Below are positions 31,845-61,449 of a stretch of DNA of 64,000 nucleotides, one piece after another. Numbering within the stretch: the first letter of the stretch is position 1; each line of letters begins with the position of its first letter. The stretch comes from Raillietiella orientalis. Taxonomy: Eukaryota. The notes below the pieces were generated by a model. It made no database searches and was not told where the DNA came from. It worked only from the letters and a program-made list of their open reading frames with translations. The DNA lies in NCBI GenBank assembly GCA_036172245.1, contig JAYWIR010000084.1:186001-250000 (forward strand), read 5' to 3'. Both the position numbers and the translations under genes were made by a program.

Positions 31845-32014
31845 CAAACCTGCGCAGCCGTCGCACGCGTTTTTGGTGAGCTCCCGCGAGCGTATACGTG
31901 CCCTGCAGCAGCCACAGGCGCGGAGAACGCACTGCGTTCTTCGGAGCCCTGCGGCGAGACTGGTTGGCCGAAGCAGGCGTGTGGCGGGCGCACCTAATAG
32001 CGGGAGACTTCAAT

Positions 32015-37761: not shown

Positions 37762-37791
37762 CCAAAGACCCAACGGATGAATGAGGAGAAT

Positions 37792-39531: not shown

Positions 39532-39629
39532 NNNNNNNNNNNNNNNNNNNNNNNNNNNNNNNNNNNNNNNNNNNNNNNNNNNNNNNNNNNNNNNNNNNNN
39601 NNNNNNNNNNNNNNNNNNNNNNNNNNNNN
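39532..39629. other. Assembly gap (98 N)
   Basis: Run of N. Confidence 0.99.
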
Positions 39630-42600
39630 GTCAACACAGTCTAACGCCTTGTGCGCTCTAGGGTGGACGTGTTTTCTCAGTGCTCCTCGTGCCAGGAAAT
39701 CTCCCCCAGTGCAAGCGTCGTGTGGTTCGGTGGTCGATCAGGCAGCGATGCCTGACGCGACCACCAGGGATGGCCAGGGGGTAGCGGTAACGCCGCCCCC
39801 AGAGGCGATGGAGAGCCAGGGGGCGGCGGCAACGTCGCCCCCAGAGGCGATGGAGGTGGGGGCATCCGCCCCCACAGAATCGGTCCCCGCTGCAGCGCGG
39901 GCGTGGAGCGCCGTTGTGTCGGCGCCATCGCCTGCAGTCGCGGCGGAATTGTCGGCCTATGTAGAGGAGGGGTACAACCTTTCATTGTTCTACAAGGTAG
40001 GCAATTTATATTCTTTAGAGAGCGCGCGCGCCTTCTCGAAGGGCATGCGCGCTCTCGATGTGAAAGAGGAGGAGCTCAGCGCTATGACCATCCGCAGCGG
40101 GGGTCAGTACGTTGAGAACATCTGCAAACATGCAGAGCTGGCCCAACGACTGCTTAAAACCCCCGTTGTGATGGGGACGCGCAGGCTTCTCTTCACTACG
40201 GCGGACCGCAGCATGGTGGTCCACCTGTTAGGCGTGACCGCGCGAATGCGCAAAGAACAGGTTCGCGCCGCTTTGCAACAGTTTGGAACGGTCCACGCGC
40301 AGTGGACGGAAGTTAGTCCTTTCGAGGACTACACGGAGCTGCAACACGGCCTCACTGCTGCGGGCGTGACCGTTCGGGAGGGCTGCACTCTTCCCCACAA
40401 ACTGGTGGTCGAAGGCGAAACCGTCGACCACTGGTATGTGGGGAAGCCGAAATACTGTGGCTTCTGCAATACGTCGGGCCACCTCAAAAAGAGGTGTCCC
40501 AATGTGCAGTGCCAAGTATGCGGCACAATGGGCCACACGAGGGAGGTGTGCCCAAAAGCAGCAGTGCGGGTGGTTTCCAAGAGAAACCTTAAAAAACGTG
40601 TCCGGCTTCTGCAGAAAAGACTGGCGGCGAAAGCTGCCGCGAAGGCTGTGCCACCCGCGCCCAAGACCCAGGCCGCACCCGTGACCCCGGCGACAAATGC
40701 CGAAAAAGTTGAGGGAGCCGGCCACTAGACTGAGTGGCAAGTGGCAACAGCCAAAAAATCAAAGAAGGAGAGGAGGATGGAAAAGAAAATCGCCTACCAA
40801 CAGAAGAAGAAAGAGCAGGGTAGCGCGATAATTAAAGAGTGCAGCGTCGTTGTCGAACGCGTTCTCGATGTTGCCGAACGCTGCCGGAAAGAACTCGCCG
40901 CTACCGACGACCTCCCCTCTGTTGACACAGTCAACAGCGAGGGGAGCGAGCCGGCGGCGTCGTCCGTCATCGACACCACCATCGATGACGTAGCCTTCGC
41001 GCGAGCCGCGGAGGAGCTGGCAGCCTCGTTGCAGCCAGAACCCTCCAAGGCCGGGAAGAAGGCCGTAAGGCGTCCGGCCTCCCCTCAGGAGTCCCCCAAT
41101 TCCGACCCCGAGGTGGAGGCCGGAAGCGCAGCCTCCGTTTTTACGGCACCGCGCAAGAAGGCTGGACGTAAGTCCACAAAGCCAAGGAAGCTCGTCTCCC
41201 CCGTCGAAGGGGAAGAGATGGCTTCCTCAAGCGAGGGTGCCATGAGCGTGGGAAACTCTCCGGACCCGTCGCACGAGAGACTCCTACGCACGGACACCGA
41301 GGGGATGGAGGGGGTGGAGGCCGAACAGGTGCCTCAGGTGTCTGAGAAGGCCGAAACCCCCATGGACATCCCGCCCGCCACGCAAGAGGAGGGCTCCATC
41401 ACACCTTAATCTTCCCAGCAGTAATGCCGGGAATCTCCTCCCGCCGTCGTCTGCGCATCGCCGTTTGGAACGTGAACGGCATGACAGACGCCGTCAGGAG
41501 ACGAGACATGGCCGCCCTTCTGGAGTCCTACGACCTTGCGCTGCTGCAGGAGATCCACGTGATCTCTGCAGAACAAGCGCAAGAGATCGAACGGATCTCC
41601 GGAGGGCGGCTATGGTACAGGTGTGGGAGAGCGAAAAGTTGCGGTGTCGCCTACCTGCTTCGGCCAGCCATCCAAGCCGCGGCTCGGGGCGTGCGGTTCG
41701 ACGATCACGGTCGTGTCGGCCAGCTGACTCTCAGGTGGTCCGACTCGATCGATCTGATCGTCACGAACGTGTACGCACCGAGCGGCAAGGACGTGATGAA
41801 CAGGAGGGCGAGGAAAGAGTTTTTCCTTGCCCTCCGGCGAGACTAGATGACCGAAGCAGGCGTGCGGAATGCCCATCTGGTTGCAGGCGATTTCAACGTT
41901 CGCCTGAAACCAGATGAGCAGAATCCCGAGCGTGACCTGGTCAACGAGGTGTGCATGGCGGTGCACACCTGTAATCTGTTGGCCAGTGCACCGGAGATGG
42001 AAGACAGCATTGACCACGTGTTTCTTGACGAGCACCTGTGCTCTCGCGTGGGCAGGCGCGGCAAGTTACCGTGCGAGCTGTCCGACCATCGCCCGCTAGT
42101 CCTCGAGATCCATCCTCGCGACAGGGGCCCCCCCTCGTCAGCGTGGCGTCTCCCAGGGGACTGGCTGAAGCTCCCGGACGCGGCGGAACATCTCCGCACG
42201 TTCATACGGAGCTTCAGTCTGCGGACACTCCAGGATTGGGACCGCTCTAAGCGGTCGGTCCAGGAGGTCTGCGACCAGTTTCCTCTGCACCGCCTACCTA
42301 CGGGTTTTGGGACCGGGGTCCGTAACGAACGAGCCTACCTGCAGGCCCGTCGTTACGCCAGGACCCCCGACATCCGCAGGCTGGCGGAATACAAAGCGGG
42401 AACCGAGAGGCAAGCCTGGCAGTCCGGATCGGTCAGCTTACTGGACGATCAGGGCGAGGAGCACTGGGCACCTGCCCAAATCCGCGGCCTGCTGCGGAGT
42501 TACTACTCCTCCCTGTATGCCAGGGCACCTCCGGAGTGGAACGCCTCACGACTCCTGCTTCCGGAAGGCGCTCCAGCGATCGGGGAGGAGCAGAGAAAGA

Positions 42601-45135
42601 CCCTCGACGAGCCTTTCACGATGGACGAGATCCTCTCGGCCATCGGAAAGCTCAAGAGGCGAAAGGCTCCAGGGGAGAACGGCCTGCCCGCGGAGTTTTA
42701 TCGAACTTTCGCGGCTGAGCTTACCCCCCTGGTACAGCAACTCACCTTGCTGATACGCGAAATATGTGACGTTCCCGCCTCGTTTCGTTCGGCAAAGGTG
42801 CGGCTCATCCCTAAGGGAGGAGATCTGAGGAGCATGAACAACTGGCGTCCCATCACAATAGGGAATGCGGACTACAAGTTGATAGCCAAGATGTGGGCAG
42901 AGCGTCTGGGACGGGTTGCCAACATCTTCATGAGCCCGGAACAGACATATGCTGTTCCCGGGCGAAGCACGGAGCCGAACCTGTTCCACGCTTCCACCTG
43001 GCAAGAGCTCCAACATGAAAGGAGCTTGGTGCGCAGCCGTAATTCCGTTGCGTGCGCCGGCAAGGGGTTGGATGGTCGGGTGGGGGAGGGAGCCCTTGCG
43101 GTCGTAATCGACTTGCGAAAAGCATTCGATTGAGTCGACCAGAATCTCCTTCTGGAGATTCTGGAACGCTTGGGCTTCCCTGCCTCATTAGTGGCCTATC
43201 TGCGCTCCTGCTGACGCGACGCACTCCTCAATGTTACTTTCAGCGGACAGACCGTGCACGGCGTGCCGGTGCGGCGTGGGAACCGGCAGGGAGACAGCCT
43301 GAGCCCCTTGCTCTTCAGTACCTACTTGGAGTTGGTACTGAGAGCGTACAGGGGAACTCTGGCGCTCCTGCCGCACGACTGTGCCGGTACGCCAGCCGTT
43401 TAAGCATACGCGGACTACCTTTTGCTGCTGCTCCCTATGTCCAGCCCGGCTGCGGCGGTCGAGGAGTTTTTCGACCTGCTGCATCGGGGAACCTGAATTA
43501 CTGTGAACAGGGCGAAGTCGTCCGTGATGCCAGTTGGTGAGGCGTGGGCAGGGCAGCAGGACTGGGTCCGTTTGGGGATCCCCACGGTGAGGTACTTCAA
43601 GTACCTTGGTGTGCCGTTGGGGGACTACTCCCCTGCGGAAGCTTGGTCCGGCTGCCTCCAAAACGTAGAGACGGCGATCGGCCCGTTCCGAGGCGGCAGG
43701 TTTTTCCTGCCTGATCGGGCCGCGGTTCTGAACAGGTTCGCGGCTCCTCTCCTCCGCTCCCTGCTTTTTGTTTGCCCCCCCACAGAGAGAATTAAAAAGA
43801 GGACAAAAAACCTCCTCCGTATCGCCCTTTGGGGCAACGGGAGGGCCCGAGTCCGCACAAAGGATTTGTGCGCTCCTCGTCGGGACGGTGGTCTGGGCCT
43901 CCTGACGCTGGAGCGGCTGGAGCTTCAGCTCCAGTTCCGCTTGTCGGCACTCGTTCCAGAGTTGTGTTGCACCTGTTGGTGCGTCCCTGCACGTCTCCTA
44001 CTTCTGCAAGCCACCGGCAAGACGGGACTGACGTGGTTTCTTGCACTCCGTCGGCGCGTCAACCGATGCGGACTTCAGCTACGGAGGGTGGCTGCGCTGC
44101 ATCGGAAAAACCCAGAATTGCTCACCTGTCGCCCTTTGAACGGTAGTGCCTGGTTGCAGGAAACCGTTCGAACGTGGGGACAGTTCGGCATGCAACGCTC
44201 CCAACAGGAACGAAGGTTCCTGTTTGGGGATTACAGAAGTTGCACGCTCCGCGAGATTCTGGAGGATCCATAGAAGAGAGCATGGGCAGGAAGAACCCCA
44301 CTCGCTGCTGCGCTGCTCTACTTGATGGAAGATCTGGACAGCGATGTTGCGGCGAAGTGGGAGGTTGCAGTTACAATCTCCGGGAAGGAGTAGAAAATAG
44401 GAGTGGAAGACGGGTCAGCTGACTGACGCTGCGACCCCGAGTACGCCTCCCAATGGACTTCTGCGCAGGGGCGCGCTGCTCGATGTTCCCATTGAACATC
44501 TGAAGTGGCCCCCGGTGCTCATGAACACTTTCCCCCTCCCCTTAAAATACCAGGAGTCGGCTGTCATGTTGCAGCCCTGGGGACTCCCCTGCAACGCCCG
44601 CCGACACCACTGGACCTGGGGAGCGGTGGACCCCAATTGCGTCAGGTGTGGGGATCGGGAGTCCCTCCCCCACCTGCTAGTGGATTGTGTTGCTCTTCGG
44701 CCTTTTTGGTTTCGCTTTGCCGCGGCCATCGGTATCTCTTGCGGCAACCCCAGGGACGCACTGAAAGCCCTCTTCGTTGCTGACGCCCTTCGTCCAGCGG
44801 CCTCGTTAGCAGCTTTGTGCTGCCTCCGCGGGATGGTCACTGCTTGGAGCAAGGCAACGGGAGGTCAACGCGACCAGGGTGCCATCCAGCCAGCCTCCCA
44901 GTTCCTGAGGAGGGCGTCCCGATCGCCCCACCTGGATTCATCAATACAGAAGGAGCTTGCCGGCATCCTGCAAAGGATGCAACGGCCCCACCAGCAACTG
45001 TGATCCCTTCCCTTACCCTCCCAACTTTTCTTTTCTTTTTTGTTTTGTTTTTTTGTTTTTCCCCCTTCCACCTGCTGCCGTGGTGGACCGTACCGGTCTG
45101 CGAACCGGTGACCCGGCATGCTCTGTGTTTCTTCC
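39630..45135 (+). mobile_element. Near full-length disabled LINE copy E16
   Basis: 5' motif at 39665. ORF1 starts at 39748 (CGFCNTSGHLKKRC, CQVCGTMGHTREVC). TAATG at 41422-41426. ORF2 41424-45003 has multiple stops and YADY in place of YADD. The 3' UTR lacks the terminus. Confidence 0.93.
39772..39855 (+). repeat. 42-nt tandem duplication in the ORF1 N-terminus
   Basis: Encodes GQGVAVTPPPEAME / SQGAAATSPPEAME. Confidence 0.8.
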
Positions 45136-46330
45136 TGCGTGGCTGGAGCAATGGTCCAGCCACGCACGCCCTGCAGTTGCAACAAAGCGAAGACCAGGGA
45201 GGTCAAGAGAATCCTGGATTCTCCTCTGACCAGGGAGGGGACGCCCTTCATGGAAGAGCCGCGCCCGGTGCCCTTGCGGTCGCAGTCGATCTGCGTAAAG
45301 CGTTCGATTGCGTCGACGAGGAACTCCTTCTGGAGCTCTTGGAACGCTTGGGATTCCCAGCTGTGTTCCGGGCTTACCTGCGCTCCTGCTGGCGCTTCGC
45401 TCTAATAAACATCTCTTTTAGCGGCCGGCACGTGTACGGCGTGCCGGTTCGGCGTGGAATGAGGCAGGGTGACAGTCTGAGCCCCATGCTCTTCAGCATC
45501 TATATCTCGGCAGCTAGCTGACGCTGCGACGCCGAGTGTTCCGCCCAACGGAATTCGACGCTGGGGCGAGCTACTCGGACTATCTCCGGAGGAGATGAAG
45601 TGGCCCTTAGCGTCCTGGAACAGTGGATCCCTCCCCTTGAAATGGCAGGATGTGGCGTTGCTTTTGGTACTCTGGGGATTACCATTCAAAGCACGTCTGC
45701 ACCACACCACCCGGGGGGCTGTGGATCCCAATTGTGACCGGTGTGGGGAAAAAGAAACATTCCTCCACCTTCTCCTTGAGTGTAGCGCCCTCCGTCCTTT
45801 GTGGGATCGTCTCGCGGCGATCCTGGACCTGCGCGGATGCGGTCCAAAGGACGTTTTCAGGCGCCTCTTCTGTAGTGACGCCTTGTCCCCGCTCGCTAGT
45901 GTAGCAGTCCTCTGCTGCATCAGAGGAATAGTGGCGGCTTGGAACGCCACCAGAAGAAGGCGTCAGCCAACCGGCAACGCCTTACACTGGAGTCGCCTTT
46001 TCGCGCGCAGTGTCTGCAAGTGGCGCCACTTGGGCGCTGAAAGGACTCAGCTTGTGCGGATCCTGAATAGGATCTACAGGACCTTTCCACGCGCACCGTG
46101 ATCCCTTCCCCGTCCTCTCACCCCTACAACATTTGTTCTCCCCCACATTTGAGCTTTTTGTTTCCTTTTTTTTTTCTTTATTTCCCATCCCCGCTTATCT
46201 GAAGCACCTCTCCGGCATGGAGCCGGTAACCAGCAAGCTGTTTTGCAGTGGTGAACCTTCGAGTTCGCCACGCGACATTTCATGTATTTTTATTTCAAAG
46301 AAATAAATGCCCCGGCACATTTGGGTGTGA
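45136..46330 (+). mobile_element. Internally deleted LINE 3' derivative E17
   Basis: VDLRKAFDCV..RQGDSLSPMLFSIY is joined near 45505 to QLADAATP..KWP..CDRCGEKETFLHLLLEC. Stop at 46099-46101. Terminus AATAAATGCCCCGGCACATTTGGGTG. Confidence 0.88.
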
Positions 46331-46332
46331 AT

Positions 46333-49300
46333 TGCGACGGCGCGCGTCACCATGGACGACCGGAGGCTCATGCCTTCGCAGATCCTCCTCGGTGACGTCG
46401 TCGTCTATCTCCGGTTTGCCGGGCAAACAGCCGCTTGCGGCAACTGCGGGAAGGAGAGCCACCGTCCGCGGAAGTGCCCAACACGCAGTTGCCGATACTG
46501 TAAGCTGCTCGGCCACTCGATTAACGAGTGCGTTGAGCTAAAACGAAAGAGGAGGGCGAGAAACCTCCCTGCAACATCGCCGCCCGCGCCGACTCCATCC
46601 GCCCCGTCGTCGGGGAAGAAATCCGGCGCGAACAAGGATTCGCAGCGGAGAAGTGAAAAGTCCGCTTCCGCGGGCAATTCTCGGAGCAATGCTAAAAAAA
46701 AACCCGCGCGAAAGGACAAGAAGCTTCTACAAGCTGCTTCAGTGGAGCCCCGAGAGATCCAGCCCGCCGATAACATCGGGCAGGCTGCAAAACCACCGCC
46801 GCTTCCGTCCGCTCTCGCTCCGGAGCGAAATAGCGGTGGCACGCTCGGGAAGTCCACCGGAGCTACAAAAAAGGGGTCGCGCGCCCCTTTGCCCGCGACA
46901 GGCAAGCCGGCCACGGCGGGCCGAACGCCAGCAAAGGCAGAAAAGCCTCGCGCGACCCCCGAGAATCCCGCCACTGTTCCCGCACCTCCCGGTAAGGAGG
47001 TCCAGAAGGCAGACGTGGCGATGGAGACACTGGCCTCCATCGCCGTATCCGAGGCCTTGGAAAGGATGCGAAGGACCCTAGAAGCCCTCGCGCCCAACCG
47101 GGGCAAACAGGAAGGCGGCGAGGATGGCTGGACCTTCGTCCGGGGAAAGAAGGAGCGCAAACCACGCGATCCTTCCCACTTTTCGATCAAAAAGGTAGGC
47201 GGGGTGAAGAGGGAACCCCGCGCGCCCAGAAAGGCGCAAGGAAAAGCCTCTGCTGCCGCCGCGCGCGCTGCCGCAAACACCCGCGGCGAGAGGGGAGCTG
47301 CCGAAGCCGTGACCCCGAAAGGGGGATCGGCGACGAAGGCACCCTCTAAGAGTGCTGGACCAGCTCCGGGCTGCCAGCAAACAAACAGGCAGGCGAAACG
47401 CCCGCCGCGCGCGCGCAATTCGGACTCCGAGGTGGAGTCCGAGGGCAGCGCAAAGGCTCGCCAAGCCCCGGTCAAGGCCAGGGCTGCGCGCAAGCCAAAA
47501 CTTGTCAGGCAAGAGCCTGATGCCGGGAACGGTTCCCGATGCTCCTCGGAGCCCGAGGCAATGGTCCTCGACTCCACCGAGCCGGCCGCGAGCGGCGCGG
47601 CGGGGACAGGAAGCGCTTGCGCTACCTCATCCGCCGTGCTCCCGGCTGATGCTTCGCCGGACGGTGCGAGGAACGCACCTCCATGTCCGTAGCAGCAATG
47701 CGCGTTCTCGCTTCTTCCCGTCGCGTCCGAGTGGCCTGTTGGAACGTCAACGGGCTGCAGGACAACGAGAAGAAGCGATTCGTTGCCAACGTCTTGCGCG
47801 ACTTCGATCTGGCCCTGCTGCAGGAGATTCACGCACTCTCCGAGCAGCAAGGGGCCGATCTGCAAGTTCGCGCAGGCGGGACGCTCCATTGGAGGTCAGG
47901 CTCCCAGAATACCTGCGGAGTCGCATTCCTTGTCCGGGGCAGGGTGGCGGGAGCGGTGCGGAGCGTTTGTTTCGACGAGGAAGGTCGTGTGGGCCAACTT
48001 GTTCTCAAGTGGTCCGAATCGATCAACCTTGACGTCACGAACGTGTACGCGCCGTGCGGCTCTGCGCGTCACACCGAGAAACTAGAGTTTTTCGAGAGAC
48101 TGCGCGACCGCTGGCTCAGCAACTCCGGCCCCGACGTGGCTCACCTCGTAGCCGGGGACTTCAACGTCCACGCGCTATCGGAGGAGTCTCACCGTCGCCG
48201 GGAGAAGCGGCTGTTGAACGAGGTGTGCGCGTGCGTGGACGTCTCGAATTTGCTGGCCGACGATCCCGGAATGCGTGCTTTGCCGGACCATGTGTTCCTC
48301 GACGATCACCTGCATTGTCGGGTGGGTCGAAGAGGTCCCGTGCCGTCCGAGCTTTCCGACCACTACAGGCTGGAGTTTGAGCTACTCCCGCCTGGCAAGG
48401 GCCCTCCGACGCACGTCTGGAGGTTGCCGGCCGACTGGTTGAGAAATCCGGTGACTGCGGAGCACCTCCGCCAGCATCTCCGGACCTTTGCCGTTCGAGA
48501 GCTCGTGGACTGGGACGATCTGGAAAGATCGGTACGCGAGTTCTGCAGCCGGTTCCCCTTGCGCCTGCTTCCCCGTGGCTTCCGGGAAGGCGTGGCCAAC
48601 AGCAGAGAGTTTCTGCAGGCCCGCCAATTCTTCCGATGCCCGGACGTCCGGTACCTTGCGGAGTACAAGGCCAAGGCCGAGCGCCAGGTCTGGAAGTCAG
48701 GAGCAGCTTGTCTGCCCGACGACCAGGGCCTGGAGTGCTCGGGCGCGGCCGAAGTTCGCCGCCTCCTAAAGCGCTATTACTCCTCGTTGTACGCTAGGGA
48801 GCCGACGGAACGCAGTCTCTCGGAGCTGCTTCTGCCGGCGGATACCCCGGCGGTCGACGAGGAGGAACGCGCCACTCTTGACTTGCCCTTCACGGCGGAA
48901 GAAGTGTCCTCCGCCATAGCGGGCCTCAAGAAGCGCAAGGCGCCAAATGAGGATGGTCTGCCTGCGGAGTTCTTCCAGTGCTTCGCGGCGGAACTCATCC
49001 CCCTGATGCTGAGGCTTTCTGCGCTGATGCGAGAGACGGGCAATGTCCCGGCCTCGTTTCGCTCAGCAAGGGTGCGTCTGTTGCCGAAAGGCGGAGACAT
49101 GCGCCATTTAAGCAACTGGCGTCCCATCACCTTGGTGAATGCGGACGTCAATTTGTTCTCCAGGCTGTGGATCGCGCGCTTGGGCAGGATCGCTGGATCC
49201 GTGGTAAGTCCGGAGCAGTCTTACGCTGTTCCCGGGCGGTTCATGGAGGCGAACCTGTTCTTTGCGCGCACGTGGCTCGAGCTGCAACGTCGCGTGGCGC

Positions 49301-51490
49301 ACGACAGCCAGGCAACCGCATCTGCGGCTGACAGGGCTAGGCGTCGCTGCATTCGGCCTGGGGAAGCGCCGGGTGCCTTGGCGGTCGCGGTCGATCTCCG
49401 CAAGGCGTTCGATTGCGTAAATCAGGATCTCCTGCTGGAGCTCCTGGAACGCCTCGGTCTCCCGGTGCACCTCGTGGCCTATTTGCGTGCTTGCTGGCGC
49501 CACGCGCTCATTTCCATCTCTTTTAGCGGCTGCCACGTGTACGGCGTGCCGGTGCGGCGGGGCATCAGGCAGGGCGACAGCTTAAGCCTGTTGCTCTTCA
49601 GCATCTTCTTTGAGTTGGTGCTGAGGGCGTAGAGGCTGACGCTGGCCAACCTGCCGAGCTCTTGTCCAGGAACGCCGTCCGTGGCGACCTATGCTGACGA
49701 CCTGCTCCTCCTCTTACCCATGACCACCCCGGCGTCCAGTCTCGAGGATTTCTTCGAGCTGATTCGCCGGAGAGCGGGCATGAGCGTAAACCGGATCAAG
49801 AGCGTGGTCGTACCTATTGGTGCGGCGTGGGAGGGGCATGCCGACTGGATCCGCCTGGCGATCCCGACCGCTTCCTCCATGCAATATCTGGGCGTTCCGC
49901 TGGGGAACATCAGCCCAGTGTAACTGTGGTCGGACTGCCTTCGGAAGGCTTCGAATGCCCTGAGCCCGTTCCACCATAGCAAGTTCGTCCTGCCGGAGCG
50001 GGCCACGATATGGAAAACCTTCGTTGCCCCCCTCTTGCGCCCCTTGCTTTTTGTTTTCCCGCTCCCCTGCTCTGCCAAGCTCCAGGCGCACAGCCTTTTG
50101 AGGAACGCTCTGTGGGGACCTGCGAGGTCCAGGATGCTCCTCAAAGACTTGGCGGCTCCGCGTCGGGATGCTGGTTTAGGCATCCTGACGCTGGAGAGAA
50201 TGGAGCTGCAGGTGCAGCTTCGGATGTTGGCCCTGTGCGCCAACCTTTGGTCCACTCCGTGGTGCGCTCCCGCGCGCCTGCTTCTGCGGCGCTGCACAGG
50301 CAGCAATGGACTTCTGTCGCTGCGGCCGCACACGGAGCGCGCCACGAGAAGCTTCGGTTTTCCCTTGAAACCGCTGTATCGGCTCCTGGAAGCCCAGGTA
50401 TGGATCTCCTGCCGCCCAACGAACTTTGAAGCCTGTCGGCAGGAACCGTTGCATGGCTGGGCAAAGCACCAGGATGTTTCCCTCCTGGAACTCCGTTGCG
50501 ATCACCTCTCCCCGTACTGCACGGTGGATGAGGTGTGCAACAGCCAGGAGAAGTGGACCCGCCTGGCCGTCACCCCCCTTGAAGACGCACTATCAGCCCT
50601 CAGGGCAAGAGATGACAGTTGCGAACCGGCGAGATGGGAGGTCGCCTGCATTATCGCAGGAACAACGCGACCTATTGGCGGCTGGAAGACTTGCGAGCTG
50701 GCGGACGCCGCCACACCTCGCCACGTTCCGAAGGGACTCCTTCGGTGGAGCGAACACTTGAGTGTGCCCCTTGAAGAACTTGTGGTTCCTCCCTCGTGTC
50801 TGAACACTTCTGTGTTCCCCCTTTCGTGGAAGCAGCACGTGATTATGCTGGTGCATTGGGGTTTTCACTCCAACCAGCGCACGAACCTTGTTTCCGGGGG
50901 AGTCGTCTCCCCAAACTGTAAGCGGTGCGGGGAAGTGGAAACGCTCCCGCACCTGCTCCTGGACTGCGGTGCCCTTCTAGGACTCTGGCGTAGGCTGGTC
51001 TCAACTCTTCTGCACCAGGGGGACACCGCGAGGGACTTGATGCGCCGCTTCTTCACGCCAGGCGGCCTGTCATTGGGTGCTGTCGTTGCAACCGTGTGTT
51101 GCACCCGCGCCATCGACAAGGCCCACCGAGAGTTGGAGAAGCTGGCCATCCTTCGTCAGCTCACCGGATTAGCCAGCGCAAACATGTCGTCCGCTGCCCA
51201 GTGGGCCCATCTGCCACAGGGCGTAAGGAGAGAGATTGCCGGCATCCATCGCCGGTTTTGAAAGGAAGGAACGGACTTACCAAAGACCCCTGTCCCCTGC
51301 CCTCCATATTTTTCTTTTATTTTTTTATATAGTAGTGTGTTTGTGGTTCCTTCCCTCCCGTTCCGGACTTTCGGCATACCGACCTGAATGTCGGGGATCC
51401 CACCATCTTCGTCTCTTGTTTTCCCCTTTGTCCGGGAACCCTGTTCCCGGATAGTTTATAATAAACGCCCCGGCGCACCCGGGTGACAAA
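46333..51490 (+). mobile_element. LINE copy E18, 5'-truncated within ORF1 and otherwise the best-preserved copy
   Basis: ORF1 is open to 47692 (CGNCGKESHRPRKC, CRYCKLLGHSINEC). ORF2 is full length, and the 3' UTR and terminus are complete. Confidence 0.95.
47698..51261 (+). pseudogene. ORF2: APE endonuclease, reverse transcriptase and C-terminal CCHC finger (~1187 codons, two nonsense codons)
   Basis: The ORFs at 47683, 49681 and 50035 share one frame and are interrupted only by TAG (49630-49632) and TAA (49921-49923). Contains TYADD and CKRCGEVETLPHLLLDC. Confidence 0.93.
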
Positions 51491-53540
51491 CAACCGCCCT
51501 CCCGCGATCGTTTCGATCTCCTGAGCGTCTTTTGCTGTGATCACGTGGATCTCCTGCAAAAGCACCAGGTCGAAATCTCGCAAGGTGGCGGCTGTATCTC
51601 GTCTGTCTTCGTTGTCGCGCAGCCCGTTGACATTCCAACTGGCCGCGCGGATCTGACGGCGACAGGCGACTCCAGGTGTTATTCCTGGGAACCTGGCGGT
51701 GGTGCTCCCGCCACCTTTTGGGGCGGGTCGCTGGACGGGGTTGGCGTCTTGCCCACCAACTCCCCATCCTTCTTACGTGCCGACGTCTCCGGCTGCCCGT
51801 GCGAAGGGGGTGTTGCTCGTACCTGTTGGCCCACATCCATTGGTGCGGGTGGTTCAGGTTCGGCGGTTTCAGGGGGCATTGCTGACCCCTGGTTACCCTC
51901 CTCCATTGGAGTCGCCTCCTCGTCGGCTTTCGCACGTGGGTGATGCCCGACTTGGGCTCCCAGGCTGCCATCCACTGGTTCCTCCTCCATTGGATCCCCC
52001 TCGCGCGGAGGCGGAATGCACCTTCGGGGTTTCTGGGATTTTCGCCCCGCTTTCCTTGGTGGTGCTTCCGCAGAGGATGCACTTCCCGCCTTTCGGTCCT
52101 ACTCACCTGCGGGGGTTATTTTAGCTGCTGCCGGCCTACGCAATCCCTTTCGCGAAGGGTTCTCGCGTTCGGCAAGCGTTGCCGCAAGCTTCTCGGCGGC
52201 CTTCACGAATGCTGCGTCCTTGGTTTCGGCGATTTTGTCGTCCGGCTGACCCTCTTTGCAAGCAAGGGGTGGGTTTTCGCGCGCATTCGTCGCGGCGGGG
52301 AAATCGATCGAAGCCGTATCGCCTGCGGTGGTGTCGGCGGGAACGTCAATGCGCTCCAGCGTAACCGTGCATTCTCGGAGAGTTTTTACGCGCGACACGG
52401 ATTGAGCTTTCGTTCCGGCCGCCACCTTCTCTCCTTTCTTCGGGACATGCTTGTCCTTTTTCTCTTTTTCGGCTTTGACTAGCTGCCAGCCCTGTTCTCC
52501 CTCTGCGGTTTCGGGAAGATTTTTCTCCGATGCCGCGGTTGGAGCTTGGGTTATTGGCAGCTTTTCTCGGCCAGTTTCACGGTTTTCCAATTTTTCTTTC
52601 CCCGCGCGTTTCCCTTGCGCCTTTTTGGCGGCCGAGGAAATTGGGGTGGGGCGTTTAGGGCACACGCGACGGACGTGTCCCTTCTCCCCGCACAAGTAGC
52701 ATACGATGTTTGGGCACATCTTTCGGATGTGTCCGACCGCATCGCAGTAGCCGCAATACCGTGGCTTGCCCGCATACCAGAGGTCTACCGGTTCTCCCGC
52801 GACCTCAAGTTTGTCGGGAGCTTCGCTTCGTTTTTTGGGGTTACGCGTGCCTCGGCGAGGCCCCCGAAGTGGCTTCCGTAGCCCTTAAAGATTGTGGGTT
52901 CCGGCCACAGCGCGTGTACGTCTCCGTACTTACTTAATTGTTCTTTGAAGGCAGTGTGCGTCATGCGCTTAGATATTCCTGTCAAGTGTACCACTACCGA
53001 GTGGTCCATTGACACCGGGAAGATCTTACGGCCGTCCATGATCAGCGGGGTATTTATAAGGCGATCGGCTAGGCTGATGCTCTTGCACACCACTCAACCC
53101 GCTGCTCCCCGCTGAGCACGCACAGACCTTCCAGATCTTCCTCACGGACATTAGCATTTTGAAACGCTCTGCTGAAAGAGCGCGCCGTGTTTCCCTCAAA
53201 CAAAGGTCCTACCTTGTATACAAGCGATAGCTTGTATTGAGAGGCCCTATAGGCGGCTTCCTCGGCCATGGCCTTTGCATCGGGGGCGGCGACCATTTCA
53301 CTCCAAGTCTTCGCCGGCTGCAAAGATGTTCCAGGGACTATTGCCCCCATAGCTGTAGGTCTTGTGGGAGGACTTGCCTCCCCCACAACTACATCCATCG
53401 CGGTTTCCTCTGGCACGGCTGCCATCGGACACCGACAACCCACACTTTTCACCTGACTACACTAAAAACTCCGGTTGCTTCCCAGACAAGCGCTATCGGA
53501 GCGACCACAAAACACGTCCACCCACACCGGCTTTCGGCGA
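51491..53540 (-). mobile_element. LINE copy E19: 5' UTR, frameshifted ORF1 and start of EN (E7 subfamily)
   Basis: 5' motif at 53509-53519, ATG at 53425, CYLCGEKGHVRRVC, ORF1 stop at 51679-51681, then SWNVNGL..LLQEIH. Confidence 0.9.
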
Positions 53541-54540
53541 TGCCACCCGGATACGCCGGGACGTTTATTAAAAACATTTCAACAGTCAATACAGAACGTG
53601 TTACAAGGCCCCACTGACGGCCACGCAATACCGGAACTGCCGGGACACCGGGATGCAGCCCGGTGTGGCTGTCCTCGGCAGTGGAGGGGGATGGGGCAGA
53701 AAACAAAAATAAAATATAAGAGAAAAACAAACCACAAAAAAAGTTTGGAGGGCCGGGAAGGGATCACAGAAAACTGCTGGGAGGGCCCATCCTTTGCAGG
53801 ATGCCTTCTAGTTCCATTTTCAGAATTCCTAGATGGGGCCATCGGTAGCTCTCTGCAGGAAGCGAGAAGCATACTCGATGAGGTCCCTCACGATGCAGTC
53901 TTCATCTTCGGCATCACTCCAGGCCGCCACGATACCACGAATGCAGCAAAGTGCTGCCAGGGCTGCGGCTGGACTGAGGACGTCCCGCACGAAGACAAGA
54001 CTGTACACGTCTCTGGGGTTGCTACCATCGGGTATCCCAAGGGCCGTTCTGAGAAGATCCCAAAGAATCCGCACAGCAGGGCAATCAACTAAGAGGTGGG
54101 GGAGCGACTCTTGCTCTTCACAACTGGCACAGGCAGGATTTACTCTTCTTCGCGTTTAGTGGAAGCGGTGCGCGTTGCAGGGTAGACCCCTATGCAGCCA
54201 CAGAAGCGCCAATTCTTGCCACTTCAGGGGAAGAATCCTGGATCCAAGTAAAACCGGTGCCATTTCAGGTTATTCAATCGAATGCCGAGCAGCTCGCCCC
54301 ATCTTCTTAATCCACGCGGCTGGAGACTAGGGGTCATAGCGTCTGTCAACTCTCCCATGGCACAGACGCTCGTCATCTTCTCTCTGCCTGTGATACGGCA
54401 GCAGACTTGCCACATCGGCTTTCGTCTTTCGTGGAGAGCCCTTTGGAAGAAGGGCATCGCCTTAGCAAGGGGTGTCCCTTCTGCCCACGTGCAACTCGGT
54501 GGAAATTCAAGAATTTCACGCAGAGTTCGGCGGGCGTAAG
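53541..54540 (-). mobile_element. LINE 3' fragment E20 with complete 3' UTR (E11 subfamily)
   Basis: Closely parallels 28320-29170. Terminus AATAAACGTCCCGGCGTATCCGGGTGG. Confidence 0.9.
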
Positions 54541-54569: not shown

Positions 54570-57020
54570 ACAGAGCAAGCCATCCTTAAGTTTTTGTGTG
54601 TGTGGAATTGCAGCCGTTGGAAGGCAGAATTGCCTGAAGTCGCCGCAACACTTTCGACGGGAAGCGTGTGACCCACGTCTCTCCAACCCATAATGGTGGG
54701 GTCATGCCCCAACAAAAAATCGGGCCCCACCGCCTCGTGAGGGCTTGGAACAAGGTGGCTGTTTCGGGTCCACCCGACGTGGTCGCAGAAGTTGAAGCCT
54801 AAATGAAGGAGGGCTACAAAGCTGCCCTCCTTTATAAGGTAGGAAATCTCCAATCTCCGCTAACTACGCGGAAATTTGGAAACGACATCCGTAGGATGGG
54901 AATAACAGACAAGAATAACAGATGGGAATAACATTCTGCGCTTCCCGGTACACAGCATCAGGCAGTTCGCGGAGCTCATCTGCAGAAATGGGGCGCTCAC
55001 GCACAAACTCCTCTGCACTCCCGTAACTTCTGAAGGACGGAATTTAATTCCACACACGGTGGATCACTCGATAGAAGTCCACCTAACAGGTACCACTGCA
55101 CGAATGAGGCAGGAAGCCATCCGCACAGAAATCGACAAATTCGCGGAGATATACGCGATGTGGAAGGAGCCCAACTTTTGTTCTTATCGAGATAGGGTGC
55201 GGGAGTCCCCTTCACCTTATAGTTGACTGCCTTGCTCTCCGGATTCTGTGGGATCGTCTCGAAACGGCTTTCGCAGCACTCACTCTCGGGCCCCTGCTTT
55301 TAGTGTGCCCAACTTCTTCCCACACGAATCCTCTCCGACAGGGCAACCGCCTGCTATGGATTGACCTCAATCCTAATAGCCAACGACCGTAATCTGAACC
55401 ATTGTGGAATTCAGCTACGGGACTTTATTGCTCTGTTGAGGGACAGACCGTGGATCTCCTGCAACCCGTGTACTGGACTACCTGGTTTTAGGATTCCGTT
55501 TCTGCATGGGCAAAAATCAACGGCTCCAGCGATGTAGACTTCTCCTTCCTCCGTCGAGGCAGGTTTGCTGGCCACTCACTGCAGATCATTTCCAACCTAC
55601 GGAACCTGCTGTGGGCTAACTTTACCCCCTTGTCTCCGTGATGCCCTTCCTCAGAGAAACAAGGGATAGACAAGAGAAGCCATCGTGGGAAAAGTCCTGC
55701 CTCCTCGGAGGATGGAAAAAACCTATAAAGGCGTGGAGGTACCGGGAACTAGCGCACGCTGCAACACGGAGTGTCCCGCTTAATGGAATTGTGCACTCAA
55801 TCGAGCTGCTCGACATGCCTTCGGAGGAAGTGAAGTGGCCCCCAGCATCTTGGGACAACGGCACCCTCCTTCTGCAGCGGCAGGAGACGGCGTAGCTTCT
55901 GCTCCATTGGGGACTTGTTTGCAGAGCACGCCTCGTACACTCTACCTTAATAAGTTCGAATGCCCACTGTGCTCTGTAGGGAAAGGGATACCTTCCCCTG
56001 CCTAATTATAGTATGTGTGGTCCTCCGCTAGATGTGGGACCGACTTTCGTCGATTCCAAACATTCCCGTGGGCAATCGGAAAAACATTTTTCGGTGCCTA
56101 CTGATGCGGGACGCCATGCCGTCCGCAGCGTGTGTCCCAGTACTCTGTTGCATGTGCGAAATTTCGGATAAGTGGACTGCAACCAGGGGAATACGCTGAA
56201 GTCGGAATGCCATTCACTGGCAACCATCTCTTCGGAGAAGGCTTCCCGTTGGCGCCGACTAAGAAAACTTCTGCCGACACTTGTTCGCATCCAAAATCGA
56301 ATACAGAGTTCTCTCCAGGGCGTACCGCGTTCCCTCCCCTTCTCTTCTCCCCCAGAAAACATTGTACCACCAAGCTATTTTTCTCGTTTTGATTTGTTTT
56401 CTGTTTTTACGGCCCCTGGTCCCGTGAAAAGTACTTTACCGGTCTGCGGCTCAATAAGGACAAGTGCCCCGAGACAGAGAACATATGTTCTGACTGAAAA
56501 ATAAAAGTGATCATGACACAAGAAGACTTTATTATAAAAAATTTCTCCTTGTAAATATTTTAATAATAAAAGTCCCGGCTTACCCGGGAAAAAAACCTGG
56601 TTGCAGTTGAATCCATGGACAAGGCTGCAGGGTGGTCTCGCCTTCGTTACGTACTCAAAGCTGACATCGCCGTCATCCTGCGCCCATTTATAGTCTCTGA
56701 AAAAGGGCGTACTTCGGTGCCATCTGTGAGGTCTCATCCACTCCCTATCGCAATCCCGTTCTTTCTTTTGAGTTCACAATGCTGTTACCTATATTCTTGT
56801 GCCTTGCTGAGCAATCTCAAGGACCGTTTTTCAAGCTTCCCCGATTCATTGTTTTCCTTTTGCTTTTGTTTGTTTGTTTTCTCCGACCCACACGTATCTG
56901 AAAAATTCTCTTGATTCCTCCGGAGTCGTCGGTAGGCGCTAGATTCCCAACTGGTTTACTTGATATAATTTTTTCCTTCTCATTACATAAAGTAAACGCC
57001 CCGCCGTGAGCGGGTGAGAA
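54570..57020 (+). mobile_element. Mosaic of decayed plus-strand LINE pieces (ORF1 start 54570-55190; C-terminal pieces; 3' termini near 56595 and 57020)
   Basis: Resembles 27228-27830, then HLIVDCLAL and EEVKWPPASW, with two terminal motifs. Confidence 0.8.
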
Positions 57021-58230
57021 ATCTCATGGACTTCGGTTGCGGTGATCACGTGGATCTTCTGCACGAATGCAAGTTCTAATTTTTGCAGGCTTTGGGCAGT
57101 ATCTCGTCTGTTGGCATCGTTGTGCAGCCTGTTAACGTTCCAGGAGGCCACACGGATCCCATAGCGATAGGTGTGTTCACTTGTTATGCCTGGGAACATG
57201 GCGGAGCGGCTATCGCCACCTGTTGGAGAGGGACGCTAGACTGGGTGGCGTTTGGCGTTCCTGCTTTCCCTCCTCCATACGCGGGACGCAGTTGGCACCT
57301 TCTTTGCGGCAGCTTTCTCCGCACGCTGTTTTTCAGGTTGTGTGGCGCGCTTTTTCTCGTGCTTTGCGGACGCGATGCGAAGTATTGCGTTTGCGGATTC
57401 CCTACGGTTGTGGTCATTGCGCTGCATGGTTTGCACTGAACGCTCAGGTGCACCTTCTTGAGGTGGCGCGATGGATTGCAGAATTTACTGTATTTAGGCT
57501 TTTTGACATGCGAAAGTTCGACATTTCCACCAGCGACCGCTATTTTGTGGAAAACTTGCTGCTTTCCCGGGCAGAGATTCGCGCGCATGCAAGGTCCCGT
57601 TGTAGTTTCGCATGCTTCACAAACGAAGAAGGCTAGAAGTACTGCGCATGAACCGCGCCGCGCTGTTTGAATACGGCGCGAAGTTCTGCCCTCTCTATAC
57701 GCGCTGTGACACCTAATAGCGGACCACAATGCTGTGGTGCACCGTAATAGGAAGAAGACTGCGCTTTCCCATGGTAACGGGGGTTTTCAGCATCCGCTGA
57801 GCTAAATCTGTCTCTTTGCAGTATACTTCCACCAATTTTCACCCTTCGCATGCTCATCGCGCCCAGTTGTTCCTCCGGCACGTTGATAGCAAGCAAAGGC
57901 TTCGAAAAGGTGTAAGCACGCTGCGGAAAAAACAAGTTGCCCATCTTGTAGAGCAACATGTGGTTGAGCTGCCATTCACTTACGCAATGAATTTTGACGC
58001 GACTGCAGGTATAGTCGCCGCACCACGTCTCTCGAAGCTCGGGATGCCGCGGGGACCGATTCGGTAGGCGGCTGTTGCCACCTCCATCGCCTCTGACGAC
58101 CACGTCGCAGCCTGGCACTCACTGATGGTCCCGTCAGGAGTTCCTGCCTCATCCACAGTCCAACTGAACTCAACGCACTGAAGAAAAGGATCACTGCACC
58201 GCGACGGACCAAGAAAACACGTCTATTCTG
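57021..58230 (-). mobile_element. Decayed LINE 5' part (deleted ORF1, start of EN; E16-like)
   Basis: 5' motif at 58214-58224, LLYKMGNLF, KPKYSKFCNPSRHLKK and IRVASWNVN. Confidence 0.8.
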
Positions 58231-58231: not shown

Positions 58232-59435
58232 GAAACCAAAGCGTTCGACTGCATCAAAGAGGAGTACCTCCTGAAGCATTCTGGACTCTCGAGATTCGAG
58301 ACGGTCTTCCTGTCTTCTCTGCGCTCTAGTTGGCAATTCGCGATAGTAAACATTTTTTTTAGCGGCACGCGCGTGTACGGTGTGCGGGTTCCTCGTGGCA
58401 AAGTGATACACCGAGTGAGCAGGAGGAATAAGTAGGATGCCCTTCACGTCACCCGCTTCCTGCAGATATCGTCGAGGTAGCTCTGCCTAGAAAGGGACGT
58501 GACGGAGCTCTCCGACATCCTGCAACTAAAGCAAAAGCCTCACCCACTACGAGATGTGATCCCTTTCCGTCCCACAAGCTAATCTCGTTTTGGTCAACTT
58601 TTATTTTTATTATTTCCTTTTTTATCTGATTTTGTTTTATCCATCTTCTTCTTCTTAGGCTCGATAAGCCTCGCTGGCTCTCACTTATTTCCACTGTGAT
58701 AATCAGGATCATCTAGCCATCTGGCTTCACTGATAACTCTAAGAGATATAATTGCCTAGGTGCACCCAAGTGCGAAACCATACTCAGGATAAAGAGACCT
58801 TAAATAATTTTATTGCTTTACATCTATCTTCTGCATGAACAGCAGAACTTTCTACAACAGAATTTCGGGGAGTTGCGTCCCCGAACTGTGTTAAATGCGG
58901 AGCGGTGGAATCGCTTCCGCATTTGCTGTTTGAGTGCGGTGCCCTCCACGAGCTGTGGCAGCGGCTGTCTTCAGCGCTCCTGCACCCTGGACACACCGCA
59001 CTGGATTGGATGCGCCGTTTCTACACGCGTGCCGGACTTTCTCTTGGAGCGGTCGTCGCAATCATCTGCTGCGTCCGCGCCATTGTCAGGGCCCGCCACG
59101 TATTGCAGATGCGAGCAGTCCCAACATCGGTCCCCGACACCGCAGCCTGCAACCTGCAAATGGCTGCCGGGTGGCCACATCTTGGAGCAGAAGTGAGGAC
59201 GGAGATCGGCGGCATTCACCGCCGGTTCTGAGAATAGGAACGGTTAGACTGTATACCCCTGTCCCCGCCCTCCCAACCGATTTATTTATTTATTGTCCCA
59301 CCCCCTCCCGTTCCGAACTCTCAGTGTGCCCGGACTGCGTTCCGGGAAATCTACTCCCCATCTTCTGTTCCCCTTGCCTGGGAACACAGTTCCCAGTTGA
59401 TATTGTAATAAACGTGCCGGCGCAACCGGGTAATA
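58232..59435 (+). mobile_element. Decayed RT piece and two LINE 3' ends (near 58775 and 59435)
   Basis: KAFDCI..FSGTRVYGV, TGATCCCTTTCC and NCVKCGAVESLPHLLFEC..GIHRRF*. Terminus AATAAACGTGCCGGCGCAACCGGGT. Confidence 0.82.
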
Positions 59436-61449
59436 AACAACAGAATTTCCGCACACCTTAAAAATAAAGCTGCGTTTGTAGCACTGTGCCTAATAAGAGT
59501 TATGTTTCGCCCAAGCTGCCGCAGATGGAGTGACCATCTGCGCGATCCAGATCTTCGCTTTGAGCGCGCAGGAGTGTGTGGGTTCGGCTACCTCCATAGT
59601 CGTGGGCTAAGGGTAAGAGAAGGAAAAAGCCTCTTATTTTCAAACATCCATCGTTGTGTGCATAGGGGGCCTTGCTACTGCACACTGACTAAGAACGCAA
59701 ACACGCAGTAGAAAGTTGTCAAAGGTTGCCATGAGATTGTTTCCATCCCCTTGGGTACACAGAACGATCATCTGATGTTTTTCTGATACATTTGGGCATT
59801 TGGCATGGCTTCACCATTCGAGCAATCTGAAAATACAAACGGAGCTCGGAATTTGAATGTTCTCACAGAGCACATGGTCAGAGTCACAACGCGGCGGTGT
59901 TTCAGGGATAGGCAGAACAAAAACAGTATTGCTTTCGGTTCAACGTTAGCTGGAAGTCCGAACTGGATCCGCTAAAGAAACTTTTCGAAGGGATCATTGA
60001 AGTATCTAGATGTTCCCTTAATGCAGTTCTGCATTAACGAAGCCTAGTGCATAAGACACCGCAAAGCAGTTAATGATCAGGTGTTTCTAGAGCACTGGTA
60101 TGCCTCTCCGAACGAGCTACAGAGAGATAGGATACTGACACACGCCTGATGTCGGAAATGCAATCCGTTATAAAAATGAAGACAACATTGATCTCTGTTT
60201 TTGCGTACGGTTGTGAAGGAGACAGAAACCTTTGTAGGTCTTCCGTTTACCCTGTTCTAAAGAAAACTGTAGGTGCAACTTTGGCAGTGTGAAGTCCTTG
60301 CAAACGTCTTTAAGGAGCAAAAGCGCTACTAACTGTGCTGCTCTAGGATGCACATTTGAAGGTAGTGATGATCAGAAGCACGAGAAACGAGGAGACACAT
60401 GGAGAAATTATCCGTTTTCACCAGAAAACAACTGAAGAAAGAAACGCTGAGAGACTAATGAATTCTCATCTAATATAAACTTTTATTCCTAAAACGCGAG
60501 CATAGCGAGCGCATCTTCCAATAAATATGGTTTCGTAGAGAAATAACGCTGCAGCGGAGAATGAAACAAAATCTGTACCACATGATCCAATCTTCTTGCT
60601 ATTTACTGCCAAAGTTGAAGATCTCAAAGTACTTGCAGCCAATAATTTTCTTAATGTTTTGTCAGCGAGGAATGACCTCTTGAGGGACTGCTTTTAGGAT
60701 CCTCACGTGAAAATTTAGGACTCCAAAGTGGTAACAACTTTTGTAGAATGCAGCCGCTTGTGCAGGGCATTCGTTACTTGTGGATCCACTGCAGCTATGC
60801 ACTTTACTTAGTAATAGATATCTTTGCAACTTCAATCCACTTCATCGTTTGAAGTCACTCCCCGTTGTGGCTTAAAAGCTCCCATTCCTTACTCTTTCAT
60901 CATCTGTTGTGTTCCCCAAGGTGCGTGATGAAAATTGGAGCGTCAAAATGGACTAAGAGCGTAGGTAATATTTCGGAGCGCACTATTATGTGTTTACCAA
61001 ATCCATGTAATGACAAAATGGCTCAACTTTGTTTGCACACAACATGTGAAATTTTGCTTTCTCCGCTACTGCATGCTCATCCTCACGTATCCTTCAATTC
61101 CTTTCGTATCCTAAGCAGTTTCGGTAAGAGGAGACTTTAGAGTCTCCGTACTTCATGTGTTTTCCTTGTTGATTCACTTTCAGAATGATTGGTATAACGT
61201 GTCATCCACGTCTCCTCAAGCTCTACCCTGTAATTGTCTACAGAAAGTATAATCAACTTACATACTGAAGCACACTCGTATGCCACTTATTCCCATGGTT
61301 TTGACTAACGCAACGAGTGACCCAGAAGACTACTTTGAAAGCACGTATTAATCACAGCTTAGAAAGTCAGTGTAATGATTCAACTTTAATGGAATGATGA
61401 ATGGGACAAAAACATTTTTGTCCTCAAGGAAATACACTTGTGATAGAAA

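Follow-up and report, generated by a model that had tools for sequence, protein, structure and literature searches.

A covarying hairpin with a CUG-initiated hexaloop in the 3' untranslated regions of L1-like retrotransposons of Raillietiella orientalis

Does the hairpin that recurs in the untranslated regions (UTRs) at the 3' ends of decayed L1-like long interspersed nuclear elements (LINEs) of Raillietiella orientalis represent a selected RNA structure, and if so, what reads it? The question is raised by a 64,000-nt stretch of the genome (assembly GCA_036172245.1, contig JAYWIR010000084.1, positions 186,001 to 250,000 of the forward strand; the whole stretch is here called the window), and in particular by the 3' UTR of the copy c51, which extends from the stop codon of open reading frame (ORF) 2 at 51259 to 51261 to the tail (51262 to 51494, +). 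An initial annotation of the window had described a hairpin, here designated hairpin 1, in which the stem sequence changes between copies and a 6-nt CTGNNN loop is kept, and had taken it for a selected RNA motif of no described family, perhaps serving in reverse transcriptase (RT) recognition or ribonucleoprotein (RNP) assembly. This interpretation was upheld in part. A selected RNA structure is supported by paired stem substitutions, by the constant CUG at the start of the loop, and by G-U pairs that work on the sense strand only, and no Rfam family matches it; for its function, analogy speaks most for RT recognition or RNP assembly. We consider that hairpin 1 is probably a cis-acting RNA element that selection maintained during the active life of the LINEs and that was recognized by the LINE's own proteins.

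LINE 3' ends were sought by similarity, by an AATAA-plus-hairpin motif, and by stop context, and 13 independent UTRs were found to reach the hairpin-1 site. Because the window contains a tandem duplication of ~10.6 kb, two pairs of UTR copies were each counted once. The count excludes c28/c39, which break before the site, and t9184 (9181 to 9222), a 5'-truncated tail that does not include the region of hairpin 1. An intact CUGNNN-loop hairpin with a stem of 5 to 8 bp was present in 6 of the 13 UTRs: c51 (CCGAC-CUGAAU-GUCGG, 5 bp, -5.7 kcal/mol; 51379 to 51394, +), c59 (CCCGGA-CUGCGU-UCCGGG; 59329 to 59346, +; present in the centroid fold), c53 (ACACCGGG-CUGCAU-CCCGGUGU, 8 bp; 53645 to 53666, -), c17 (ACGCCGGG-CUGCGU-CCCGGCGU, 8 bp; 17660 to 17681, -), c14 (GUCGGU-CUGUGC-ACUGAC, 6 bp including one G-U; 14541 to 14558, -), and c45 (ACCGGU-CUGCGA-ACCGGU; 45092 to 45109, +), the last being a copy without AATAAA and the terminal hairpin described below. 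Three UTRs retained the loop on a decayed stem, namely, c10, the sister of c45 (loop CUGCAA, two one-sided stem changes; 9886 to 9903, -), t12507 (loop CUGCGG, five of six pairs; 12368 to 12385, +), and t56553 (loop CUGCGG, broken stem; 56438 to 56455, +). Another three had a hairpin with a 5-nt loop at the same place: c46 (CCGGC-AUGGA-GCCGG, -8.2 kcal/mol; 46212 to 46226, +), c57, of a c46-like lineage (a weak 4-bp hairpin, -1.8 kcal/mol; 56920 to 56932, +), and c58 (AGGCU-CGAUA-AGCCU, ~100 nt past the ORF2 stop; 58657 to 58671, +). The remaining UTR, c37, had a different hairpin without the CUG loop (CCUGAA-cau-UUCAGG; 37710 to 37724, +), which recurs in its duplicate c26 at 27099 to 27113.

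All eight sequence strings cited in the initial annotation were recovered at the positions and on the strands given for them, and each of the six CTGNNN hairpins lies 3' of an ORF2 C terminus with a Cys-His motif, a stop codon, and a T-rich tract. The ORF of c51 (49924 to 51261), for example, terminates in a Cys-His motif and the sequence IHRRF followed by the stop. The stop context TGATCCCTTCC, with at most one mismatch, occurred 10 times in the window against 1.55 ± 1.32 expected; eight of these occurrences were at ORF2 ends, one (59986) was not at a LINE end, and another was at 24793.

The pairing of the stem was examined by comparison of the copies. RNAalifold, applied to a MAFFT alignment of seven 96-nt segments, predicted exactly the hairpin-1 stem and nothing else, with compensatory changes in four of its seven pairs. 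In the six quoted copies, which were selected because they form the hairpin, 87.5% of the alignment cells in the stem were paired compared with at most 45.8% when the partners were slid, and five of the eight pairs had changed on both sides. A less selected set of 10 copies consisted of these six plus c10, t12507, t56553, and c46 (c57 was dropped because it was misaligned by MAFFT, and c37 and c58 had no identifiable homologous columns). In the 6-bp stem of this set, 86.7% of the cells were paired compared with at most 50% for slid partners, four of the six pairs had changed on both sides, and the closing pair occurred as all four Watson-Crick types (C-G, G-C, U-A, and A-U). The observed numbers of cells paired and of cells changed on both sides, as well as the covariation score, were reached in none of 500 shuffles, and two further count measures were reached in 65 and 49 of the 500. 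Sister copies provide a control that is less affected by relatedness. The stems of c53 and c17 differ at two positions, which together make one A-U to G-C exchange, and those of c59 and c51 differ at four positions of the inner 5 bp, which make two exchanges; an equal number of random substitutions kept all pairs in 5.5% and 1.7% of trials, respectively. In the flanks, 24 of 72 sites differ between c53 and c17, and 25 of 68 sites differ between c59 and c51. The third comparison, c45 with c10, showed two one-sided, pair-breaking stem changes, as expected for a dead copy.

The loop behaves differently from the stem. The UTR around hairpin 1 is barely alignable between lineages, and within it, loop positions 1 to 3 are constant: U2 and G3 were invariant in all 10 aligned copies and C1 was present in nine. 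At positions 4 and 5, five copies have CG, and the others have CA, UG, CA, or AA. Relative to CUGCGN, the loops CUGCAU (53653 to 53658, -), CUGUGC (14547 to 14552, -), and CUGCAA (9892 to 9897, -) carry transitions of the kind expected of CpG decay, and the loop of c51 (51384 to 51389, +) is grouped with them here. This pattern suggests that the loop variants reflect methylation-driven decay of dead copies and not functional loop diversity. Contigs of c51 relatives, from one DNA run containing 0.19 of the words, served as the source of variant letters and of element ends; they had C at 51387 in five of six cases and G at 51388 in six of six, and the loop of the c51 family thus appears to be CUGCGU. 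Because the c51 relatives read CG and the CA and UG variants are CpG decay products, we infer that the working loop was CUGCGN, with U, A, C, or G as the sixth base depending on the lineage. Over the last ~150 residues of ORF2, c51 is only 33% to 34% identical to c17 (34%), c53, and c45, yet the loop is common to all of them, whereas c37 (47% to 48% identical to c51) and c46 (45% identical to c17) have closer ORF2 ends but are without the CUG loop. Since distant ORF2 lineages share the loop and closer ones lack it, the CUG loop looks ancestral and later replaced.

Several stems contain G-U pairs, which are valid in the sense RNA only, and a covariance model scored 28 to 38 bits on the sense strand and 13 to 17 bits on the antisense strand at the same loci, which points to action of the hairpin as a sense-strand RNA. 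When run over the window with filters off, the model found, beyond its six training copies, only the decayed hairpin of c10 (E value, 0.4); it missed the remnants that we assign to family C and the hairpins with 5-nt loops. A match at 36035 to 36062 (E value, 0.16) was rejected as a chance hit, as it lies inside the coding region for the RT YADD motif. The view that the motif belongs to no described family holds for Rfam, a scan against which gave nothing at the gathering score in the whole window and nothing at E values of ≤1 in two UTRs, and a keyword search of open-access text found no description of a CUGCGN hairpin. An iron-responsive-element-like hexaloop was considered and rejected, as the loop sequence differs and Rfam gave no match.

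The position, conservation, compensatory changes, and sense-strand polarity of hairpin 1 are observed properties of the copies. As for its partner and role, which we propose by analogy, the stem would need only to pair (5 to 8 bp of variable sequence), and the hexaloop starting with CUG would be the part that is read. The readers would be the element's own proteins, which would in this way single out the transcript that encodes them, both for RNP assembly and for target-primed reverse transcription (TPRT), a mode known as stringent recognition. Between these proteins, ORF2p is tentatively our first choice as the reader. Retroviral zinc knuckles bind exposed G-containing loops, and for this reason, the CCHC-knuckle ORF1p is a serious second candidate, though a rather doubtful one. 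The terminal hairpin, located directly before the single-stranded tail, would be the better candidate for setting the RT at its start site. The 5-nt-loop hairpins of c46, c57, and c58 fit a lineage-specific label better than they fit a single host factor.

Several observations weigh against recognition by the element's own proteins or against selection altogether. Hairpins with a CTGNNN loop and a stem of ≥5 bp, with G-U pairs permitted, are not enriched in the window, as 22 were counted on both strands compared with 19.2 ± 4.3 (maximum, 37) in 200 block-wise first-order Markov simulations. The folding energies of 49- to 50-nt segments were ordinary in five of the six quoted copies (z-scores of -0.64 for c17, -0.57 for c59, +0.16 for c51, -1.87 for c14, and -1.59 for c45, compared with -3.03 for c53), as they were for c46 (0.00) and c58 (+0.27), and the minimum-energy folds of 50 nt of c51 and c59 use other pairings. 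The weakest of the hairpins is that of the quoted locus itself (c51; 5 bp, -5.7 kcal/mol, CUGAAU). The sample amounts to 6 to 10 copies that are kin by descent and were partly picked for the hairpin, and the shuffle statistics ignore kinship; moreover, because the CCGG/CCGG core of most stems is palindromic, conservation of the sequence accounts by itself for some of the pairing. Hairpin 1 starts 98 to 115 nt 5' of the TGA in seven copies and 147 to 162 nt 5' of it in two family-C copies and is therefore not at the end of the RNA. No short interspersed nuclear element (SINE)-like element with such a tail was found in the window; within these 64 kb, the model located the hairpin in LINE UTRs and nowhere else. 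Finally, one loop common to lineages with very different ORF2 sequences also fits a common host factor. It is by position and covariation, and not by motif count or thermodynamics, that hairpin 1 exceeds chance, and the support is solely comparative.

Such a host factor would be an RNA-binding protein that reads the CUG loop in export, stability, or localization or that enhances 3'-end cleavage at the AAUAAA ~75 nt downstream. Some insect LINE RNAs have stem-loop localization signals that are read by host machinery. A single conserved protein would more easily account for the same loop in lineages with ORF2 C termini that are ~33% to 34% identical, and the location of the hairpin upstream of a canonical AATAAA instead of at the RNA end would also suit it. 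However, three lineages took unrelated 5-nt loops and one took another hairpin, so that the factor would have been lost to them unless it had been switched, and no Rfam family of host-recognized hairpins matches. In addition, the LINE 3' stem-loops studied experimentally are bound by ORF2p (PMC4176376). We therefore regard a host reader as unlikely.

A still less probable explanation is that hairpin 1 has no selected function and is a GC-rich CCGG palindrome inherited within a fast-decaying UTR, the covariation arising from few, related, and hand-picked copies. The chance-level motif count and mostly ordinary energies agree with this, as do the 49 to 65 of 500 shuffles that reach two of the five measures; furthermore, kinship among sequences may be enough to outscore all shuffles even where no structure exists, and the six quoted copies were picked for the hairpin. 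What such a neutral patch accommodates poorly is that the slid-partner controls retain the relatedness and still fall from 86.7% to at most 50%, that the closing pair takes four Watson-Crick types in a stem that RNAalifold finds unaided, that the stem differences between the two intact sister pairs are all compensatory amid flanks that are ~33% to 37% different, and that loop positions 1 to 3 are constant in a barely alignable UTR. Selection on the DNA, with the palindrome offering other LINEs of the nest a place to insert or acting as a protein-binding inverted repeat, might be considered, as the LINEs nest in one another, the flanks of c51 and c57 match an antisense endonuclease region, and the UTR of c28/c39 is interrupted ~20 nt before the site. 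However, the stem sequence varies while pairing is retained, which is incompatible with a sequence-specific DNA site, the G-U pairs are valid in sense RNA only, and an insertion junction within the hairpin was seen in 0 of the 13 UTRs, which makes this explanation hardly credible.

Recognition of hairpin 1 by the LINE's own proteins has precedents. It is through stem-loops at the 3' end that most LINEs recognize their own RNA as the one to be copied, and these stem-loops explain which SINEs a LINE can mobilize, with L1-group elements usually seen as the relaxed, poly(A)-reading exception. Hairpin 1 is of a kind already known, the LINE 3' recognition stem-loop, and not of a new kind, and its function as a recognition element is plausible. 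ZfL2-1 and ZfL2-2 cannot do without their 3' stem-loop; with a stem from elsewhere they retain about half the rate, a loop from elsewhere is not tolerated, and the RNA is bound by ORF2p via a basic region between its endonuclease and RT domains (Hayashi et al. 2014, PMC4176376). The UnaL2 and ZfL2 elements of the L2 clade resemble the LINEs described here in having a short 3' UTR hairpin in an element with endonuclease and RT, with specificity in the loop and a stem that only needs to pair, as well as in having loops that differ between related lineages and short non-poly(A) tails. They differ in belonging to the L2 clade instead of the L1-like group, in their unrelated loop sequence, and in the location of the stem-loop, which immediately precedes the tail repeats at the extreme 3' end, whereas hairpin 1 is ~100 nt upstream, with two hairpins and AAUAAA in between. 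Their function was demonstrated by retrotransposition and binding assays (PMC4176376), whereas that of hairpin 1 is proposed. Among the features of stringent-type elements, a location in the LINE 3' UTR and a compensatory stem with a conserved loop are found in hairpin 1; location at the extreme 3' end is not, and it is found instead in the separate terminal hairpin.

A further precedent comes from the L1 group, in which LINE1-1_ZM of the monocot 1a lineage (with ZmSINE2/3) and L1-1_CR of Chlamydomonas have a hairpin at the 3' end whose stem varies by compensatory changes and whose loop is conserved (Ohshima 2012/2013, PMC3472496, PMC3747384). The monocot 1a lineage belongs to the L1 group, which the elements in the window resemble, and its hairpin is taken as evidence of stringent recognition in a clade better known for relaxed poly(A) recognition. 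However, its loop UCU and 3' flank CGAG lie in the last ~45 to 50 nt (PMC3747384), whereas CUGCGN lies ~100 nt from the end and thus lacks the extreme 3' position; those elements end in poly(A) with a tail common to SINEs, whereas no SINE partner was seen in the window; and the hosts of monocot 1a and L1-1_CR are a plant or an alga, whereas a tick and a sea cucumber are the sources of the best-named protein relatives found here. Human L1 ORF2p, the closest solved RT relative, holds a template stem-loop beside a single-stranded 3' tract by means of its C-terminal segment, RNA-binding domain (RBD), and thumb and thereby helps to set the TPRT start (Thawani et al. 2023, PMC10830416). This placement of the stem-loop matches that of the terminal hairpin and the UGA/A-rich tail. 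However, recognition by human L1 ORF2p is largely not sequence specific and needs long poly(A), whereas the tails here are short, and the stem-loop in the human case belongs to Alu, the L1 3' UTR being without one according to that study (PMC10830416), whereas the hairpins here are within the LINE itself. R2 is similar in having a multihelix 3' UTR with separate RNA parts for protein binding and TPRT initiation (PMC11194090) but differs in its restriction-like endonuclease, its distant RT (E value of 9e-13 versus 2e-37 for L1), and the absence of sequence or Rfam similarity. Because the free stem, the obligatory pairing, and the fixed loop match the ZfL2 pattern and the L1-group precedents, the tail is read here as a recognition module. 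A clear structured tail in an animal L1-like group adds a data point to the question of stringent recognition as the ancestral state of that group, and hairpin 1 is a compact RNA element whose loop and stem can be separated in binding studies.

The rest of the tail is organized in a constant order: the ORF2 stop (usually UGAUCCCUUCC), a pyrimidine- or U-rich tract, hairpin 1, hairpin 2, AAUAAA, the terminal hairpin, UGA, and an A/C-rich tail. Hairpin 2 is present in each lineage with a lineage-specific sequence. It was identified in c51 (UCCGGGAAC-ccu-GUUCCCGGA, -14.3 kcal/mol; 51431 to 51451, +; present in the whole-UTR fold), c59 (CUGGGAAC-aca-GUUCCCAG; 59378 to 59396, +), c46 (GUGGUGAAC-cuucga-GUUCGCCAC; 46248 to 46271, +), and c45 (an 11-bp stem, -22.7 kcal/mol; 45137 to 45165, +). 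The covariation noted earlier between the second hairpins of c51 and c59 proved genuine (C-G in c51 versus U-A in c59), and the third lineage, c46, extends the pattern: these three copies have a GAAC/GUUC top in common, and by inspection, one pair of the lower stem reads C-G, U-A, and G-C, and the next reads C-G, C-G, and U-A. Elsewhere, GGCC...GGCC is unvarying in three group-A copies, and GCUGG/CCAGC is present in c45 and c10.

In the terminal segment, AATAAA is followed by 2 to 5 bases, CCCGG-N5-CCGGG, TGA, and a tail that is short and A/C rich. In c51, this segment spans 51460 to 51494 (+), with the hairpin CCCGG-CGCAC-CCGGG. The terminal hairpin was also located in c59 (4 bp, followed by UAA; 59416 to 59433, +), c53 (53543 to 53560, -), c17 (one mismatch; 17568 to 17585, -), c14 (one G-U; 14447 to 14464, -), and c57 (57000 to 57017, +), where CCCGC/GCGGG is the sole compensatory change in the terminal stem. 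With at most two mismatches, AATAAA plus CCCGG-N5-CCGGG plus TGA occurred nine times, where 2.32 ± 1.56 occurrences would be expected and where nine was attained in 0 of 100 shuffles; two further, decayed copies bring the total to 11, and the tails end in AAC in 7 of these 11. The segments from AATAAA to the tail are at 51460 to 51494, 59407 to 59441, 12507 to 12545, 56562 to 56600, 56988 to 57025, 46299 to 46335, and 9181 to 9216 on the plus strand and at 53535 to 53569, 17560 to 17595, 14438 to 14473, and 9775 to 9814 on the minus strand. The terminal hairpin is the most conserved piece of the tail, with a constant stem sequence and a free loop, the opposite of hairpin 1. Its cells were paired at 89.1%, a value reached in 62 of 500 shuffles, with one C-G exchange (c57) and three G-U pairs; because it is conserved as a sequence, covariation does not demonstrate its structure. 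The contigs of c51 relatives leave the window sequence just past 51486 and 51492 and have unlike continuations, and because they diverge there, the element is considered to end 0 to 8 nt past the terminal hairpin, ~27 to 35 nt past AATAAA. In annotating this genome, hairpin 1 together with the terminal motif is of practical use for locating and orienting the 3' ends of LINEs in dense nests.

A more elaborate proposal, which we consider speculative and unlikely, is a two-tier address in which the common terminal hairpin (CCCGG-N5-CCGGG-UGA) would position the RT and hairpin 1 would be a lineage label that would divide the co-resident LINEs, provided that its reader is ORF2p or the CCHC ORF1p of the element itself. 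The label would have been CUGCGN in most lineages before CpG decay, with a lineage-dependent sixth base and closing pair, and at least three lineages would have swapped it for 5-nt loops. If this were true, co-resident LINEs that nest in one another would be split into separate template-recognition groups, and an animal L1 group would show stringent recognition, which bears on Ohshima's proposal of ancestral stringent recognition in L1.

Other possible interactions within the tail were also considered. In c51, GGAACGG just past the stop (51268 to 51274) is complementary to CCGTTCC just before hairpin 1 (51358 to 51364), and the same complementarity is found in c59 (59237 to 59243 with 59308 to 59314). 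Such pairing would loop out the U-rich tract (~85 nt in c51 and ~65 nt in c59); it is conserved in both copies, without covariation. A kissing contact of UGCG in loop 1 with CGCA/CGUA in the terminal loop, with four complementary bases in three lineages, was unsupported, as the mean complementarity was 3.0 within a copy and 3.04 between copies and random loops reach four bases in ~10% of cases. An outer helix around hairpin 1 (UGCCG...CGGCA in c53 and c45) was not established, with 71.8% of cells paired and three of its six pairs departing only by unpaired cells. Eight metagenome loci that match the terminal-motif pattern were rejected as chance matches, since their flanks are GC rich and unlike LINE tails and the hairpin model gives at most 10.3 bits, and a separate query for relatives in metagenome contigs gave no match.

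The elements themselves form a nest of decayed non-long terminal repeat retrotransposons that makes up the GC-rich middle of the window (~6 to 60 kb). Conserved Exo_endo_phos and RVT_1 domains were identified in the frame at 47650 to 49632, and zf-CCHC was identified in ORF1-like frames (Pfam). Human L1 ORF2p was the best solved match to the RT of the window (E value, 2.3e-37), with R2 proteins reaching only 9e-13. Matches to zf-RVT in two C-terminal frames were under the Pfam cutoff (17.5 and 19 bits versus 27.5), and several homologues have zf-RVT among their precomputed domains. Because human L1 ORF2p is the closest solved relative and zf-RVT is weakly matched, the elements are called L1-like, a label derived from solved-structure and domain matches.

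The tandem duplication covers about 21477 to 31900 and 32089 to 42500, with paired ORFs at an offset of 10,612 nt. The UTR copies at 26989 to 27389 and 37600 to 38000 are 100% identical, and the RT regions of the two halves (25188 to 25688 and 35800 to 36300) differ at some sites.

Nesting was evident at several junctions. The 3' flanks of c51 (51490 to 51730, +) and c57 (57048 to 57221, +) match the antisense of the start of the ORF2 endonuclease-coding region of other LINEs, as seen by comparison with 8640 to 8875 (+), 47726 to 48059 (-), and 41531 to 41785 (-). Because of these antisense matches, c51 and c57 are considered to have been inserted backwards into the coding sequence of other LINEs, and their insertion points are ~24 nt apart as measured from the common landmark GTGATCACGTGGATCT. 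The UTR of c28/c39 (28318, -, and 38929, -) is 90% identical to that of c53 over 216 nt and stops ~20 nt short of the hairpin site, after which T-rich unrelated sequence follows. In c17, the 3' flank TTTAAATCCCCG (17548 to 17560, -) shares a 12-nt identity with 37733 to 37745 (+) inside the 3' UTR of c37, and c17 may have landed in the tail of a c37-like element.

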